A stretch of DNA of 64,000 bases. Origin: Ignavibacteriota bacterium (GTDB lineage Bacteria; Bacteroidota; Ignavibacteria; UBA10030). The stretch covers positions 2,976,001 through 3,040,000 of the forward strand of contig OY969585.1 of NCBI GenBank assembly GCA_963701295.1, in the 5' to 3' direction. Shown piece after piece: positions 12,871 through 52,171 of this stretch (the stretch's first letter is position 1; each line of letters opens with the position of its first letter). The notes below the pieces were generated by a model, which did no database searches, was not told where the DNA came from, and saw only the letters and a list, made by a program, of their open reading frames with translations. Made by a program: the position numbers and the translations under genes.

Positions 12871-12899
12871 TTGATATTTTGCTGTAAATTCTGTAGATT
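12871..12899 (+). promoter_or_regulatory. Sigma70-like promoter of the fluoride operon
   Basis: TTGATA-17 nt-TAGATT, placing +1 at about 12906, the first base of the riboswitch. Confidence 0.6.
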
Positions 12900-12905
12900 A
12901 ATTTT

Positions 12906-12957
12906 GGCGATGGAGTTCGCCATGAATTATTCCATAGAGGAATTGATGACTCCTACC
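12906..12957 (+). promoter_or_regulatory. Fluoride riboswitch (crcB RNA motif)
   Basis: GGCGATGGAGTTCGCC...TGATGACTCCTAC consensus with the GGAG/CTCC pseudoknot, directly upstream of crcB. Confidence 0.95.
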
Positions 12958-12996
12958 TCGAGGCAGATTGCTTACGACGTAGGAGTTTTTCGTTTT
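12949..12996 (+). terminator. Riboswitch expression-platform terminator
   Basis: ACTCCTAC (12949-56) pairs with GTAGGAGT (12979-86), followed by TTTTcgTTTT; overlaps the aptamer 3' strand. Confidence 0.85.
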
Positions 12997-39306: not shown

Positions 39307-40857
39307 TTACTTCTTATCATAAATCATTATAATATTTCGTTCGCCCCAGAATGAATTGGAATACTGTTTTATTGATAAAACCGTACCAAGTTTCTGTAAA
39401 CTCCATGATTCATTATCCGCAACATTGTAAGTCAGTCCGCCTCTTTTTAATATGACCTTCGATTCAATGATCAACGTATCACAATTTTTAGACCATGTTG
39501 CTTTCATTGTTTTTGGAGAATCCCACATCTCTGACATAGATTCTTTGCCGTCAAGCGTCATGTTTTCGTCTGTAACCAAATCATCAGTATATTCCAAAAC
39601 GTAAGCCTTTTGAATGGCTAGAACATTCTCTTTTTGAGTAATCTTTAATCTGTAAGGAAGGGAGTTGACACCCATATTATCGAGTACACTGTTTTCTTCA
39701 TTAAAAATCCAGTTCCCTGAAAAATCAGCCTTTCCGCCATTGGACTTCGTCTCCTTCAATGGAAAAGGAGAAAGCCCGCACACTGCGCGGTATGGAGTAA
39801 TAAGTTTCCAGTACACAGAATCTTCTAAATTCAGTATACGATTGTTATTCACCAGTTCCCAATGTTGTTTCTTCATTGTGTTTCGAACCATTCCTGCCCA
39901 AATAACATAGAATGCCCACTTCGGCTGGTTTTTCAGAATTTCAAGCGTTGGTGGATTTCCAACTTCCGCAAGGACAAGTGGTTTTCCTTTTGATAAAACA
40001 ATCAGGCTGTCATAATACGATTGATTAAAATCTTTTTTATAAATATCTAATGAGATGATGTCGAGGAATTCATTCCCTGGGTAATAATCTGAGAACTGCA
40101 TTTCAGGCTTCACGGGCCTATCGACACTCCACATCCAAATCAGATTATGGAGTTTGTGATAATTCACGAGCCTGTCAAAAAGTTGACGATAGAGCGTTGC
40201 GGTACCGTATTTTCCAATTCGTCCTCCCCACCAGAACCACTTGCCATTCATTTCATGATAGGGACGCCAAAGCACTGGCACTTGTGCATCTTGAAGTTTT
40301 TTTAGATAAAAAGCAATTGAGTCGACTTGCGCCTGCCATCGCATATACAGCATGGTTCCCGGCGTCAGCACGTCTCTGAATTGTTGATCCAGGATTTGAC
40401 CCTGCACACTCGTCAGTGAGTCCGATGCGGTACCTTCAAATTGCGACCCGAAGGTAACAGGCTCTTCCGCGGTTGGCGGTACCGCATGCCAGCATATCGT
40501 AATGATCGAACCCATGAGATGCTGTCTTTTAATTTCTTCTACAATATCCGGTCGTGCAAGGTAAGAGTCTTTGTCGCCATCCTTTGCAAATCCCCAATCC
40601 GTACTGAATATGACAGGTGTTTTACCGATATATGCTGCTGCAAATTGTGAGTTCCTGCTTTTTGCGTTTGAATAATTATGTTGACCGGTTAACGTGTAAT
40701 TTCCTGAAATGCTGTAAATAAATTTCAATAACGCTTGAGCTTCTCGCGAAGCGTTGGGGGTTACCGGCTTGACGTTGCTATCAGAGCTAAAAAGCGAAAA
40801 AGACCTTAAACACAAAAGTACTAGAGATAGCCAAAATATTCTTCGTTTGAATATCAT
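39307..40857 (-). CDS. GH26 beta-mannanase with an extra C-terminal beta domain
   Basis: PVTPNA, ICWH, WRPYHEMNG.WFWWG (acid/base Glu), YYPG...D, LAEVG (nucleophile); signal peptide. Confidence 0.9.
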   Translation of the reverse strand: MIFKRRIFWLSLVLLCLRSFSLFSSDSNVKPVTPNASREAQALLKFIYSISGNYTLTGQHNYSNAKSRNSQFAAAYIGKTPVIFSTDWGFAKDGDKDSYLARPDIVEEIKRQHLMGSIITICWHAVPPTAEEPVTFGSQFEGTASDSLTSVQGQILDQQFRDVLTPGTMLYMRWQAQVDSIAFYLKKLQDAQVPVLWRPYHEMNGKWFWWGGRIGKYGTATLYRQLFDRLVNYHKLHNLIWMWSVDRPVKPEMQFSDYYPGNEFLDIISLDIYKKDFNQSYYDSLIVLSKGKPLVLAEVGNPPTLEILKNQPKWAFYVIWAGMVRNTMKKQHWELVNNNRILNLEDSVYWKLITPYRAVCGLSPFPLKETKSNGGKADFSGNWIFNEENSVLDNMGVNSLPYRLKITQKENVLAIQKAYVLEYTDDLVTDENMTLDGKESMSEMWDSPKTMKATWSKNCDTLIIESKVILKRGGLTYNVADNESWSLQKLGTVLSIKQYSNSFWGERNIIMIYDKK

Positions 40858-40946: not shown

Positions 40947-41019
40947 AAAAGAAAAACCCCGACGCACTACCAGACGCCGGGGTTAGGGAGGCTATCTTAC
41001 GCCGCCGGGGAGACGGCGC
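40947..41019 (-). ncRNA. Candidate ~75-nt small RNA with a C-rich loop and terminator
   Basis: Starts 7 nt after a consensus -10. 8-bp hairpin with a UCCCC loop, GCCUCCCU linker, 10-bp terminator stem and U-tract. G-U pairs fit only the minus strand. Confidence 0.7.
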
Positions 41020-41025
41020 AGTGCA

Positions 41026-41054
41026 ATTATAGAAAAGTTTTTCGTTTTTGTCAA
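41026..41054 (-). promoter_or_regulatory. Perfect-consensus sigma70 promoter
   Basis: TTGACA (41054-49), 17-nt spacer, TATAAT (41031-26). Confidence 0.85.
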
Positions 41055-41251
41055 ATAGGGATTTCGGGTTGCGTTTCTATCCATTGATAGAATATCTTCA
41101 GCGGAATCGGGCACTCGAATGATCATAATATCATCTTAACAAATTGTCTTTCTTAAGTGCAATATATTTCTCTTTTATATTTATTCTTTCTATTTTTCAA
41201 CTGTTCTATCTTTTCTAACTATTCTTCAATATTCCATGGAGGAACATATAG

Positions 41252-42235
41252 TTACCAATAGTGATGGACGAATGGCCGAATATTCTGATTATATAATTCC
41301 TTAATTGTTTTCATTGTAGAATCGGGAAGAGAAGGCAAATCGGCCGCTTTGGTATTCTCTTCTGCTTGCCGAGGATTCTTCGCACCGGGAATCGCACATG
41401 TCACCGATGAATTCATTAAGATCCACTTCAAAGCAAATTGTATCATCGTTATATCAGCTGGTACAAGGTGGCGTAGTTTTTCCACAAAGTCCAAACTCAG
41501 ATCATAGTCAACTCCAGAAAAAGTTTCTCCACGGTCGAATGCCTCGCCATGCCGATTAAATAATCGATGATCACCCTTTTCAAAATTTGACTGTTTCGAC
41601 ATTTTGCCTGTCAGCATACCGGAAGAAAGCGGCAATCTGGCGAGGATTCCTACCTTACGCTTGGCTGCTTCGCCAAAGAACAATTCTGAAGGTCTCTGTC
41701 GAAAAATATTATAGATAATCTGGACAGACTGGATATTAGGAAACTCTATTGCCTTAAGCGCCTCTTCAACCTTTTCAACACTCACTCCATAAAATCGGAG
41801 TTTACCGATCTGAACAAGATCATCTAGAATTCCGAATACTTCCGGCATATAATATACTTCCGTAGGTGGACAATGAAGCTGAAGGATGTCAATTGCGTCG
41901 GTATTCAAATTCTTTAGACTGCTTTCAATGAATGCTGTGAGATTTTTTTTATTGTATCCGTCAGAAGTATGAGGATCCAAGCGCCTGCCAGCTTTTGTTG
42001 CAATATAGAATTGTTCAGCCCGCTCATGTCTTAATTGAGCAAGAAGTCGTTCGCTCCGTCCGTCTCCGTATACATCGGCTGTATCAAAAAAGTTGACACC
42101 TGCATCCAAGACTGTATGAAGGGCAGCTAGTGAATCCTTATCGTTCACAGATCCCCATGCACTTCCAATCGCCCATGCACCGAAGCTTATTGCCGATACG
42201 TTCCAGCTTGTTCTTCCAAGTTTTCGATATTCCAT
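41252..42235 (-). CDS. Aldo/keto reductase
   Basis: FDTADVYG.G.SE, IATK, QLH, YGVSV, IPGA. Confidence 0.93.
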   Translation of the reverse strand: MEYRKLGRTSWNVSAISFGAWAIGSAWGSVNDKDSLAALHTVLDAGVNFFDTADVYGDGRSERLLAQLRHERAEQFYIATKAGRRLDPHTSDGYNKKNLTAFIESSLKNLNTDAIDILQLHCPPTEVYYMPEVFGILDDLVQIGKLRFYGVSVEKVEEALKAIEFPNIQSVQIIYNIFRQRPSELFFGEAAKRKVGILARLPLSSGMLTGKMSKQSNFEKGDHRLFNRHGEAFDRGETFSGVDYDLSLDFVEKLRHLVPADITMIQFALKWILMNSSVTCAIPGAKNPRQAEENTKAADLPSLPDSTMKTIKELYNQNIRPFVHHYW

Positions 42236-45410: not shown

Positions 45411-46239
45411 GGTAATTAGGTAGAAACGTAACCGAAATAGATTAGAGTAAAGAGTTTCAACAAATTGTCATCGCGATGGTTAAAACGATATTCAACTTCT
45501 TTAAGATACATAGGAAAATGATATTTTGAAACACCGCGATAATTATATAAGACATGTTTAGCAAAAGACTAAAATCCTTCAATACCATTAATATGATTCT
45601 TTGTTTTCGGAAATTTCTTTCCATGACTAATGGTATGATGTTTTCCAAAGCGTTTCAAGGAGCGATAACTACGAAAGGTGTCCGTGAAGTAGACCGATCC
45701 TTTCTTGGTATGTTGTCGAATATGATCCATCAATTCATTGGCCGAGACAGAATCAACAACCTTAGTATAGACCCGTCCATTGCGCTCCAGAAGCCCAAAA
45801 ACGATACTTTTTCCGCCTGCACCGCGTCCTCGTTTGCCTTTGCGACGACCACCAAAATACGCTTCGTCCAATTCTATTTCTCCTTTGAGCTTGCCAGCTT
45901 CAAGTTCGCTCACATGATAAATCGCTTCTCGAATGCGCTGATAGACTCTGGTAACAGTTTTATAATTTATTCCAAGATCATTTGCCAATCGATACGCCGG
46001 TTGCTGTTGATAAAAACCAAGAATGATTTTCAACTCTCGCCGAAGAAGATGACTTCCTTTTTGTCTTTGACACTTGTTGCATTTTACGTAGCCGCGTTTC
46101 GTTCGACAGACGTTGAACGATCCACAATACACACACTTCTTTCCACTCAAAAAGTTGTCATGGTAACTGATTTTACTGGAACTTGCCATAAAATAATATA
46201 CTTACAATTATTCTATGGTTACATTCTTACCTAATTACC
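45411..46239 (-). mobile_element. IS1595-family insertion sequence, 829 bp
   Basis: 23-bp terminal inverted repeats (GGTAATTAGGTA...GTAACC, 20/23 match) and an 8-bp target duplication AAATAACT (45403-10 and 46240-47). Confidence 0.95.
45416..46189 (-). pseudogene. IS1595 DDE transposase with an in-frame TAG at 45569-71
   Basis: N-terminal CxxC...CxxC, ELDEAYFG, FTD, NHINGIEGF*SFAKH...YLKEVEYRFN. The TAG replaces the usual Trp, and the true stop lies inside the inverted repeat. Confidence 0.9.
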
Positions 46240-50756: not shown

Positions 50757-51122
50757 TTATTTCTTAGCTGTTTCTTGTTCCCGCCTTTTTGCTTCCCGTT
50801 CATTCATTTCCTGAATCACACCATCAAATAATTTATTTTGTTCGGCACCCAGGAACTTGCGTATTTCCATCTGGGTTGTATCGCGCATCGCAAACAATTG
50901 TTTTCGATATACATCCATCTGCTGCCGACGGATTTCGAGGAGAGAATCCACTTGTGCGATTTGGTGCTCATCGAGGTGCAATCGCTCAGCCAAAATTTTT
51001 TGAAAATCACCCGGCATGTGTTCTGGTTTCATAAAAACATGATCCTTTATAAACCATCCGCAGAATATTCCAAGAGTAAAGCTGAGAAGGATAAATAGAA
51101 TTGTTTTCGTTTTTGGTTGCAT
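50757..51122 (-). CDS. Membrane-anchored helical periplasmic protein (Spy/CpxP/metal-sensor-like)
   Basis: TM helix then L.L...Q and L..EQ...F repeats; lies in the ECF operon. Confidence 0.6.
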   Translation of the reverse strand: MQPKTKTILFILLSFTLGIFCGWFIKDHVFMKPEHMPGDFQKILAERLHLDEHQIAQVDSLLEIRRQQMDVYRKQLFAMRDTTQMEIRKFLGAEQNKLFDGVIQEMNEREAKRREQETAKK

Positions 51123-51140
51123 AGGTGCCTCATTCGAACA

Positions 51141-51596
51141 TTACTTCGTCATAACTGCATATAACAGATCACTCTTCGAAAGATGGTCTTGTTGTAACAA
51201 CACGCGTGTTGTTACAGAATCAGTAAAATATCCGTTTAATAATTGATCTTCAGTGAAACCAGAGGAAGTACCGATAGTACTGGTCAACATGAATGTCACA
51301 AGAACGACAATCGCAAGCGCAAAGAATGTATTGCGTGCTAACGGCTCAACGCCAAGCCATTCCTTCACCTGTTCATCGCGTCTTTCTATGGAGTGCAATA
51401 CATGTGCTGTAAAAGTGTATGGAAGATCTGCTTCACCAAGTGCTCGGATTTCTTCTTTTATTTTATTTGCATGCTCAATAAATTCTTGGCACTCGGTGCA
51501 AACATTAATATGCGATAGTACCGTTTCCTTGTCGGTCTCACTCACTTCGTCATCTAAATAGGATGACACAAGTAATTGCATTTTTTTGTGTTTCAT
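51141..51596 (-). CDS. Anti-sigma factor (zf-HC2)
   Basis: SYLD.E, HxxxCxxC, single TM; overlaps the sigma gene stop. Confidence 0.88.
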   Translation of the reverse strand: MKHKKMQLLVSSYLDDEVSETDKETVLSHINVCTECQEFIEHANKIKEEIRALGEADLPYTFTAHVLHSIERRDEQVKEWLGVEPLARNTFFALAIVVLVTFMLTSTIGTSSGFTEDQLLNGYFTDSVTTRVLLQQDHLSKSDLLYAVMTK

Positions 51597-52171
51597 GTTC
51601 GCTCCTCGAAATAATCACTCAAGAAATTCTTGAGTTCCATCCGTGCACGGAAAATGCGCGATTTTACAGCTTCCAGACGCAAGCCTAATGTTTCAGCAAT
51701 TTCATTATAAGACAAATCTTGATATTCCCGCAGCACAAGAACTTCTCGATGTTCCGGTGTAAGCCGCTGCAATGCGGATTGAATCACTTGCCGCTTTTCC
51801 TCTGTCAATACCGAATCAGATGCCATTGTATGGTCCTTACTCTTACGACTCTTTTCCAAAGTGTCTTCAGTCAAATAATCCAATGACAACACCCGCCTGA
51901 TTTTCCGCTTCCTAATTTCATCAATGCATAAGTTCATGGTAATCCGATAAAGCCATGAAAAGAACGATGCATCGAACTTAAACTTCGGCAACGAACGATA
52001 TACTCGAATAAACACTTCTTGTGCAATATCATCCACGTCATCACGGTTGCCCATGGTCAGGTAAATCAAGTTTGCCACCTGACGCTGATAACGCTGCACA
52101 AGCGATTCAAATGCCTGATGATCACCAGCCTGTATTGATCGAATAAGTGTGAAATCGTCAGTCACCGTCAT
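51593..52171 (-). CDS. ECF RNA polymerase sigma factor (RpoE-like)
   Basis: D..QEVF, F.SWLYRI..N, region 4 SY.EIA.......VKSRIFRAR. Confidence 0.95.
   Translation of the reverse strand: MTVTDDFTLIRSIQAGDHQAFESLVQRYQRQVANLIYLTMGNRDDVDDIAQEVFIRVYRSLPKFKFDASFFSWLYRITMNLCIDEIRKRKIRRVLSLDYLTEDTLEKSRKSKDHTMASDSVLTEEKRQVIQSALQRLTPEHREVLVLREYQDLSYNEIAETLGLRLEAVKSRIFRARMELKNFLSDYFEERT

Follow-up and report, generated by a model that had tools for sequence, protein, structure and literature searches.

Does the short intergenic stretch between the genes for an aldo/keto reductase (41252-42235, minus strand; Pfam PF00248) and a GH26 glycoside hydrolase (39307-40857, minus strand; Pfam PF02156), neither of them a conserved partner, contain a gene of its own, and if so, how would its product act? 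The initial annotation of the window, that is, of the whole 64,000-nt stretch of DNA analysed here, had placed in this gap a self-contained small RNA gene with a perfect promoter and twin anti-Shine-Dalgarno (anti-SD) motifs, acting either in trans or as an attenuator ahead of GH26. The promoter is indeed perfect: the −35 box TTGACA (41054-41049, minus strand), which in relatives lies at a fixed distance from the seed described below, and the −10 box TATAAT (41031-41026), identified by sequence match, are both of the sigma70 type, flank a 17-nt spacer and match at 12 of 12 positions. Three perfect TTGACA-17-TATAAT sites, this one included, are present in the entire 3.64-Mb genome, and the rRNA operon of the host has a promoter of the same sigma70 type. 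The promoter spacers of the window's copy (41032-41043, minus strand) and its paralogues often hold, by eye, an inverted GAA-N-TTC motif, a possible repressor site.

With the usual promoter spacing, transcription would start near 41019-41022 and yield a predicted non-coding RNA of ~73-75 nt (40947-41020, minus strand), delineated by its fold, by covariation and by a covariance model, R1, built on 32 copies. It consists of a 9-bp hairpin (hairpin 1, 40998-41020) with the loop UCCCC at 41011-41007, a 13-nt single-stranded linker (40985-40997) that ends in the seed AGCCUCCCU at 40993-40985, and an intrinsic terminator (40947-40984), with an 11-bp stem at 40984-40955 followed by a U-rich tail. This is the hairpin-linker-terminator layout that had been proposed for the minus strand, including both CUCCC motifs, one in loop 1 and one in the linker, and three G-U pairs, to which a fourth, closing the terminator loop, can be added. 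The 76-nt minus-strand fold reaches −33.8 kcal/mol (z −3.79), a value equalled by none of 200 shuffled sequences; the plus strand folds at −24.6 kcal/mol (z −1.26; 20 of 200 shuffles equal). Loop 1 and the linker CUCCCU of the window's copy are unpaired with a probability of about 1.0, and in an 80-nt fold the first two seed bases, AG, are paired in part. The unit encodes no peptide, as had been claimed, the predicted transcript being devoid of AUG. A 44-codon open frame lacking an SD (40992-41126, minus strand) crosses the promoter and hairpin 1 and stops in the linker; because it starts upstream of the promoter, at 41126, it is not encoded by the RNA transcript. Comparable open frames exist in two relatives (G009 and G004), and the frame is probably due to chance, given the short divergence. 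Across the region, promoter-like sites (8 versus 7.1 expected) and terminator-like sites (2 versus 2.1) are found at chance level, so that it is conservation that sets the unit above chance.

Conservation was assessed in an alignment of 32 copies (A2). Covariation among homologues, one of the checks called for at the outset, is evident in both stems, with two-sided changes in 13 of 19 pairs (7 of 8 in hairpin 1 and 6 of 11 in the terminator stem). The stem cells are paired in 97.8% of cases, compared to 34-48% in slid controls and matched by 0 of 500 shuffles; the shuffle test is inflated by relatedness, whereas neither the slid control nor the range of pair types depends on it. Model R1 assigns 89.8 bits to the window's RNA, a sequence that is part of its training alignment.

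The unit, although self-contained as first described, is one of many, its paralogues having been overlooked. The closed 3.64-Mb genome carries five strong copies (BLAST, E<1e-11), namely, the window's and four more, and R1 yields ten matches at E<=0.01, with E-values that are rough; the weaker matches (about five) are decayed copies or belong to a related longer repeat. R1 matches were found in 15 of 15 congeners, with 3-20 per genome, and, family-wide, in 64 of 86 genomes, mostly as one match each outside the window's genus. Within the order, R1 matched 22 of 31 genomes of the family, compared to 4 of 119 from outside it; three of these four are family-like copies with restriction or AbiEi-like genes next to them, and the remaining one has the look of a terminator-only match. 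A model restricted to the 3' part (R2) matched 49 of 151 genomes across the class, but the 23 weak loci that were inspected are ordinary terminators lacking the seed and promoter; a relaxed ECF-plus-seed pattern searched in 277 genomes produced noise. Pattern matches come from Ignavibacteria/Bacteroidota metagenome-assembled genomes, with the exception of a 3-kb contig bearing the label Izemoplasmatales (L057), whose copy is complete and reflects either misbinning or transfer. The exact pattern gave no matches in IMG/VR, and BLAST searches of phage and plasmid collections returned one and two short, chance-level matches, respectively.

Consistent with its description as unannotated, the unit overlaps no Rfam 15 family at the gathering threshold, and the same holds for 20 homologous loci; the best sub-threshold match, anti-hemB (RF02837), scores 20.9 bits, the gathering score being 49.5. 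Elsewhere in the window, at 12897-12962 of the plus strand, the scan recognized a fluoride riboswitch (46 bits; gathering score, 34). A literature search found no account of this RNA family, a weak negative, given that generic papers swamped part of the results. An atlas of prokaryotic non-coding sequence produced with a language model in 2026 (10.64898/2026.10.21.760802) does not mention the lineage in its main text, and its clusters or supplements may hold the motif. Judging from sequence, this is a real sRNA family of a known functional kind which is apparently undescribed.

The promoters divide the family into two classes. We collected 70 unique metagenome copies using a seed-plus-terminator pattern that leaves the upstream DNA unconstrained (80 of 99 matches taken). 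A promoter at a fixed distance is present in 66 of the 70: 44 are of the sigma70 type (TTGAC), one of which (L193) is an ECF-class copy by eye, and 22 are of the ECF type (GGAAC-N16/17-YGTT). The distance from TTGAC to the seed is 58-63 nt in 41 copies and 68 nt in three, and TTGAC occurs in 9 of 192 control windows. The exact ECF-promoter-plus-seed pattern is found in 59 of the 86 family genomes, usually once, compared to two matches for the reversed control. The ECF-type copies are syntenic across genera, being divergent from the citrate synthase gene (gltA) and adjoining dpp4 or rluE/clpC. The ECF-promoter copy is likely to be the ancestral orthologue, because it is widespread and mostly single, whereas most of the observed sigma70-type copies come from this genus and another two or three. 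The promoter picture first drawn for the locus is thus accurate for this copy but missed the ECF-type promoter of the family's ancestral one.

A candidate for the cognate sigma factor is encoded in the window itself. The gene at 51593-52171 (minus strand), located 10.5 kb from the RNA, matches the ECF family below the cut-offs of named subfamilies, and GRAAC-N16/17-YGYY lies upstream of 28 of its 30 orthologues, compared to 1 of 30 for a within-gene control. The ancestral paralogue and the sigma factor's own gene carry similar ECF-type promoter motifs, whereas the window's copy has a sigma70-type promoter. The genome contains 14 sigma-region-2 matches, and this one ECF sigma factor was compared across relatives; the role proposed for it is that of candidate regulator for the ancestral paralogue, not for the window's copy. 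The motif is conserved about 45-55 nt before the start of the sigma factor gene, which is followed, within 50757-52171 of the minus strand, by the gene for a probable anti-sigma factor and by one for a small exported protein, with an efflux operon further downstream.

Among the sigma70-type copies, one holds a fixed place in many congeners, with cysK on one side and the gene for an acyl-CoA synthetase on the other. The window's locus was found in 3 of 16 genomes of the genus, and its copy appears to be a recent accessory member of a later sigma70-promoter expansion. The 3' half of the window's copy is identical to that of the ECF copy at 47 of 48 bases and, in three genomes (G003, G008 and G013), downstream flanks have been exchanged between ECF and sigma70 copies; together, the near-identical 3' halves and the exchanged flanks point to recombination between copies. 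Some copies reside in mobile regions. In this genome, one lies inside a 22.8-kb element bounded by tRNA-Met repeats and carrying integrase, DUF932-like and RadC genes, directly behind a longer repeated RNA-like unit, and another precedes abiEi/abiEii. Similar arrangements of an integrase, the RNA and restriction genes are found in two other genomes (G010 and G002). Defence or mobility genes, as named by Pfam, are among the nearest genes for 11 of 27 matches, an uncontrolled count from 20 chosen, likely non-core loci of G005 and G007. The RNA was considered as the integration site of the 22.8-kb island and rejected: the direct repeats correspond to the tRNA-Met end, and the RNA lies inside the element.

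Several other repeated or mobile features were observed in the course of this survey. Some island copies of the anti-SD RNA are directly preceded by a second repeated unit of ~130-150 nt, whose structure comprises an outer stem, inner hairpins and a CCCC loop, along with a C-rich linker and a related terminator. This unit occurs near positions 546.8k, 2217.6k, 2381.2k, 2423.5k, 2761.3k, 3401.5k, 3457.1k and 3620.4k of this chromosome (G000:C1) and at L025, L043 and L501; Rfam gave no match to it in the two loci scanned, and it is probably another non-coding RNA family. Sequences of ~100 nt are shared downstream of 2381.3k, 2423.6k and 3457.1k, with ends that we take to resemble attC, and cassette-like junctions are repeated around 2820-2833k, which suggests integron-like gene cassettes. 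Two overlapping integrase matches on opposite strands (G000:C1:529758-530840) are found just past tRNA-His and tRNA-Glu, and the window itself carries an IS1595-family (ISXO2-like) transposase gene at 45569-46189 (minus strand).

The part of the RNA under the strongest constraint is the linker. In diverse copies, the invariant unpaired bases are CUCCCU and the A-purine-C that precedes it, for a seed consensus of ARCCUCCCU; CUCCCU is identical in 29 of 29 aligned diverse copies, while the stems vary, and CCUCCCU is predicted to be unpaired (P > 0.8) in 61 of 71 copies. By its sequence, the linker seed is a mimic of the anti-SD tail of the host 16S rRNA. The first loop is less constant. Among the 70 metagenome copies, which are of the genus type, it reads UCCCC in 50 and is C-rich in 69, whereas in 65 ECF-class copies from across the family, counted by eye, it is C-rich in 52, GGAG in seven and otherwise in six. 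The twin anti-SD motifs emphasized in the initial annotation are thus typical, and both are found in the window's copy, but they do not define the family: the linker motif is universal, and the loop is not C-rich in 13 of the 65 ECF copies. Hairpin 1 of some genera (L100, L101, L102, L103 and L106) has an SD-like GAGGAG loop, which could pair with the anti-SD seed of the same molecule. The host does use SD sequences: SD-like words lie at −16 to −4 in 197 of 532 unambiguous starts, while an upstream control gives 15 of 532. The 99%-complete host genome contains no match to Hfq or CsrA and encodes one RRM protein and three cold-shock (CSD) proteins.

Overall, we consider it probable that this conserved structured RNA acts in trans, with its seed directed at strong SD sequences, and that the ECF-promoter copy is ancestral and the sigma70-type duplicates are later. 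The trans-acting alternative of the two first offered is favoured by the covariation, the constant promoter distance seen in 66 of 70 copies, the exposed invariant seed and the SD use of the host. The features of trans-acting anti-SD sibling sRNAs are recognizable here in the sequence: a promoter and a terminator of its own, no ORF, a conserved unpaired C-rich seed complementary to the host SD, and several paralogues per genome. In such a scheme, the unpaired CCUCCCU would pair with strong SD sequences of mRNAs and block ribosome loading on a set of them, presumably with repression as the outcome; the RNA would then be an Hfq-independent, trans-acting anti-SD sibling sRNA and, in the likeliest picture, a broad dampener of mRNAs with strong SDs. 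The G:C-rich pairing could proceed without a chaperone, as reported for 6C RNA; candidates for a helper are the host's cold-shock proteins and its single RRM protein. As for the order of events, a single ECF-driven copy next to gltA, dpp4 or rluE would have come first, followed by duplication under sigma70 promoters, both in this genus and in two or more related ones; one duplicate would have become fixed at the acyl-CoA synthetase/cysK locus, and the rest scattered in accessory regions and integrase islands, where extra copies would raise the dose or uncouple the RNA from stress.

Which mRNAs would be paired is less clear-cut. A duplex ranking over 2,976 predicted genes, based on in-house gene calls without genes shorter than 60 codons, yielded no target outlier. 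The best perfect single-gene site, in a GAF/SpoIIE phosphatase gene, was rejected, as it is not conserved in relatives, and the matching site of ytxH is retained mainly within the genus. The gene for ribosomal protein S1, rpsA, is a weak candidate: GGAGG precedes its start in 34 of 34 family genomes versus 9 of 16 outside the family, and GGAGGYT in 30 of 34 versus 5 of 16, in a sample in which 14 of the 34 family genomes come from one genus. However, the final two invariant seed bases are left unpaired, G029 has a mismatch, and the motif does not track the RNA, which is present without the motif in G017 and G028, the reverse being the case for G024 and G026, where no RNA was detected. In all 34 family genomes, the GGAGG of rpsA lies only 4 nt before the start (in this genome, G000:C1:2904340-2906112; L286-L315 and L346-L365); to our knowledge, E. 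coli rpsA has no strong SD. In five other genera, many seed-matching starts belong, by eye, to exported proteins. In this genome, a signal peptide is predicted for 64 of 174 genes with a GGAGG SD versus 241 of 1570 without an SD, a gap obtained with a crude predictor and widened by start-calling errors; the excess fits an envelope-stress role. However, signal-peptide genes are not enriched at seed-extended sites in this genome (9 of 25 versus 55 of 149 other GGAGG sites; p=1), and the exported-protein bias seen here is therefore a general property of strong SDs rather than of seed-extended sites.

That neither the duplex ranking nor the conservation checks produced a convincing mRNA target is one of the observations that would be expected if the RNA, rather than pairing with mRNA, bound and, through its many copies, titrated a protein. 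We regard this explanation, in which the partner would be the RRM protein, a protein of the cold-shock type or the anti-SD-binding site of the ribosome, as unlikely. The high copy number and the presence of one RRM and three CSD genes would fit it, as would the upper terminator stem, which is unvarying in 32 of 32 copies of A2, a set picked mostly by similarity to that very region. Furthermore, a 14-member Bacteroides sRNA family is described as binding an RRM protein (PMC11697453). However, similar terminator stems across the class are ordinary terminators, so that their conservation requires no extra function; the lack of a CsrA match leaves the GGA loops of some genera without an obvious partner; and, in the same account, the Bacteroides FopS RNA binds RbpB and still acts by base pairing (PMC11697453). 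The invariant bases are exactly the SD complement. An anti-SD mimic looks conserved under other uses too, for example, protein or ribosome binding, and the GGAG loop of seven of the 65 ECF copies is unexplained by anti-SD pairing.

Pairing with strong SDs remains the preferred reading for the family, and a further question is whether it extends to the sigma70-type copies. The ECF copy, perhaps together with the one at the cysK locus, might be the only functional member, the others being passengers of recombination and islands and, at most, promoter-terminator insulators. Decayed and 5'-truncated copies do exist, the copy number ranges from 3 to 20 among congeners, and the flank swaps in G003, G008 and G013 as well as the presence of the window's locus in only 3 of 16 genomes are in line with such passive spread. 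Yet, the sigma70 copies retain the promoter distance, compensatory stems and an intact seed while spacers and flanks diverge, and the window's copy combines a perfect promoter with an intact seed, making this a decidedly improbable account.

The second reading first offered, an attenuator ahead of GH26, fared poorly. The start of GH26 does lie about 90 nt past the U-tract on the same strand and, at the 20 chosen loci of G005 and G007, the next downstream gene is co-oriented in 24 of 27 cases by eye (two convergent, one off the contig), as expected of a cis-acting attenuator or leaky leader for GH26 or, on islands, for downstream defence genes. However, G009 retains the RNA at this locus although both the reductase and GH26 are gone; GH26 is split into two frames in G004; the genes that the two core copies of this genome face are convergent; and the genes downstream of different copies are unrelated among themselves. 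Moreover, the unit has no leader peptide, and a search for antiterminators showed that upstream pairing of the terminator 5' arm gains a median of 2.4 and a maximum of 5.8 kcal/mol, compared to a median of −19.7 kcal/mol for the terminator, and reaches half the terminator strength in 0 of 71 copies. Such a cis-acting role is very unlikely, and passive read-through into GH26 may occur. Least likely of all, to the point of being hardly credible, is a type I toxin-antitoxin antitoxin whose peptide would be encoded on the opposite strand, with the seed read as an SD and often followed by ATG: of 135 unique copies, 55 have an SD plus ATG in antisense, and several copies adjoin toxin-antitoxin and defence genes, but the lengths of the antisense frames vary between 1 and 99 codons (mostly 9-14), their products are neither conserved nor hydrophobic, and the window's copy has no antisense ATG.

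With this RNA, an uncultured lineage for which we found no sRNA literature gains a well-supported regulatory RNA family and a candidate sigma factor; anti-SD pairing itself is a familiar mechanism, and the surprise for a specialist is moderate. The family illustrates the growth of a stress sRNA from one ECF-driven copy to up to about 20 model matches per genome, most of them of the sigma70 type or without a recognizable promoter, and, with its island-borne, mobile copies and the recombination suggested between copies, it is a tractable case of the origin and spread of sibling sRNAs. A bolder and doubtful scenario is that defence islands captured the host's ECF-stress anti-SD RNA, placed it under a housekeeping promoter, coupled it to a second, multi-stem RNA, and use it to brake mRNAs with strong SDs, be they those of host envelope proteins, ribosomal protein S1 or incoming phages; if true, a translational brake made of RNA alone would be mobile alongside restriction and abortive-infection genes.

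The closest parallels are found among sRNAs of distant bacteria. Cuckoo RNAs (RSs0680/CcsR, alpha-r14) of Alphaproteobacteria are described as having 2-4 hairpins, each loop with CCUCCUCCC, and one member as binding Hfq (PMC4615179). They resemble the present RNA in being multicopy and linked to a stress sigma factor, with variable stems and an anti-SD-like C-rich motif (PMC4615179). The present RNA has one 5' hairpin with a UCCCC or variable loop, and its universal motif is the linker CCUCCCU. It further differs in its Ignavibacteria/Bacteroidota hosts, the lack of an Hfq match in the host and of an Rfam match at threshold. GsrN of Caulobacter is likewise reported to be ECF-sigma-dependent, with an unpaired C-rich stretch that recognizes G-rich mRNA sites; it is alphaproteobacterial, is processed and activates katG (PMC5869019). 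No sequence match between GsrN and the present RNA was found. The sigma70 promoter of the window's copy is another difference from the ECF-dependent GsrN.

MicA and RybB represent the non-coding arm of an ECF/sigmaE response. FoxI of Fusobacterium nucleatum, described as repressing membrane-protein mRNAs, plays the same part in a host without Hfq (PMC9546586), and its −10 box is GTCWAA, compared to YGTT here, sequence relation having been compared via Rfam only. Closer in taxonomy, FopS of Bacteroides thetaiotaomicron belongs to a big paralogous family of Bacteroidota sRNAs, with a seed and an intrinsic terminator, in an RRM-encoding host without Hfq; as depicted in the cited account, its single-stranded 5' R1 seed directly precedes the terminator, with no 5' hairpin, and its promoters are of the sigmaABfr type (PMC11697453). 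The present RNA, set apart from FopS by layout, has a covarying 5' hairpin, TTGACA/TATAAT or ECF promoters and an internal anti-SD seed. In addition, the host studied here uses SD sequences, which ribosomes of Bacteroidia are reported to ignore (PMC9976891). Another multicopy hairpin RNA with a terminator from a related lineage, the Chlorobi-1 motif (RF01696), is drawn with two stem-loops, the second with a G-rich loop, ahead of the terminator (PMC2864571), a different layout, and gave no cmscan match here. Anti-hemB (RF02837) shares the hairpin with a C-rich loop, the linker and the GC-rich terminator, in an alignment that is mostly generic terminator.

RsaE and LhrC repress many mRNAs through twin or multiple anti-SD or C-rich motifs. 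The same is described for the NmsR sibling sRNAs of Neisseria (PMC5362039), and 6C RNA, which also has C-rich motifs, is described as acting without a chaperone (PMC6486639). NmsR, 6C, RsaE and LhrC belong to other lineages and differ in length and fold, and none was matched at the Rfam threshold. By analogy, the present RNA would work like the cuckoo, NmsR, 6C, GsrN and FoxI RNAs.
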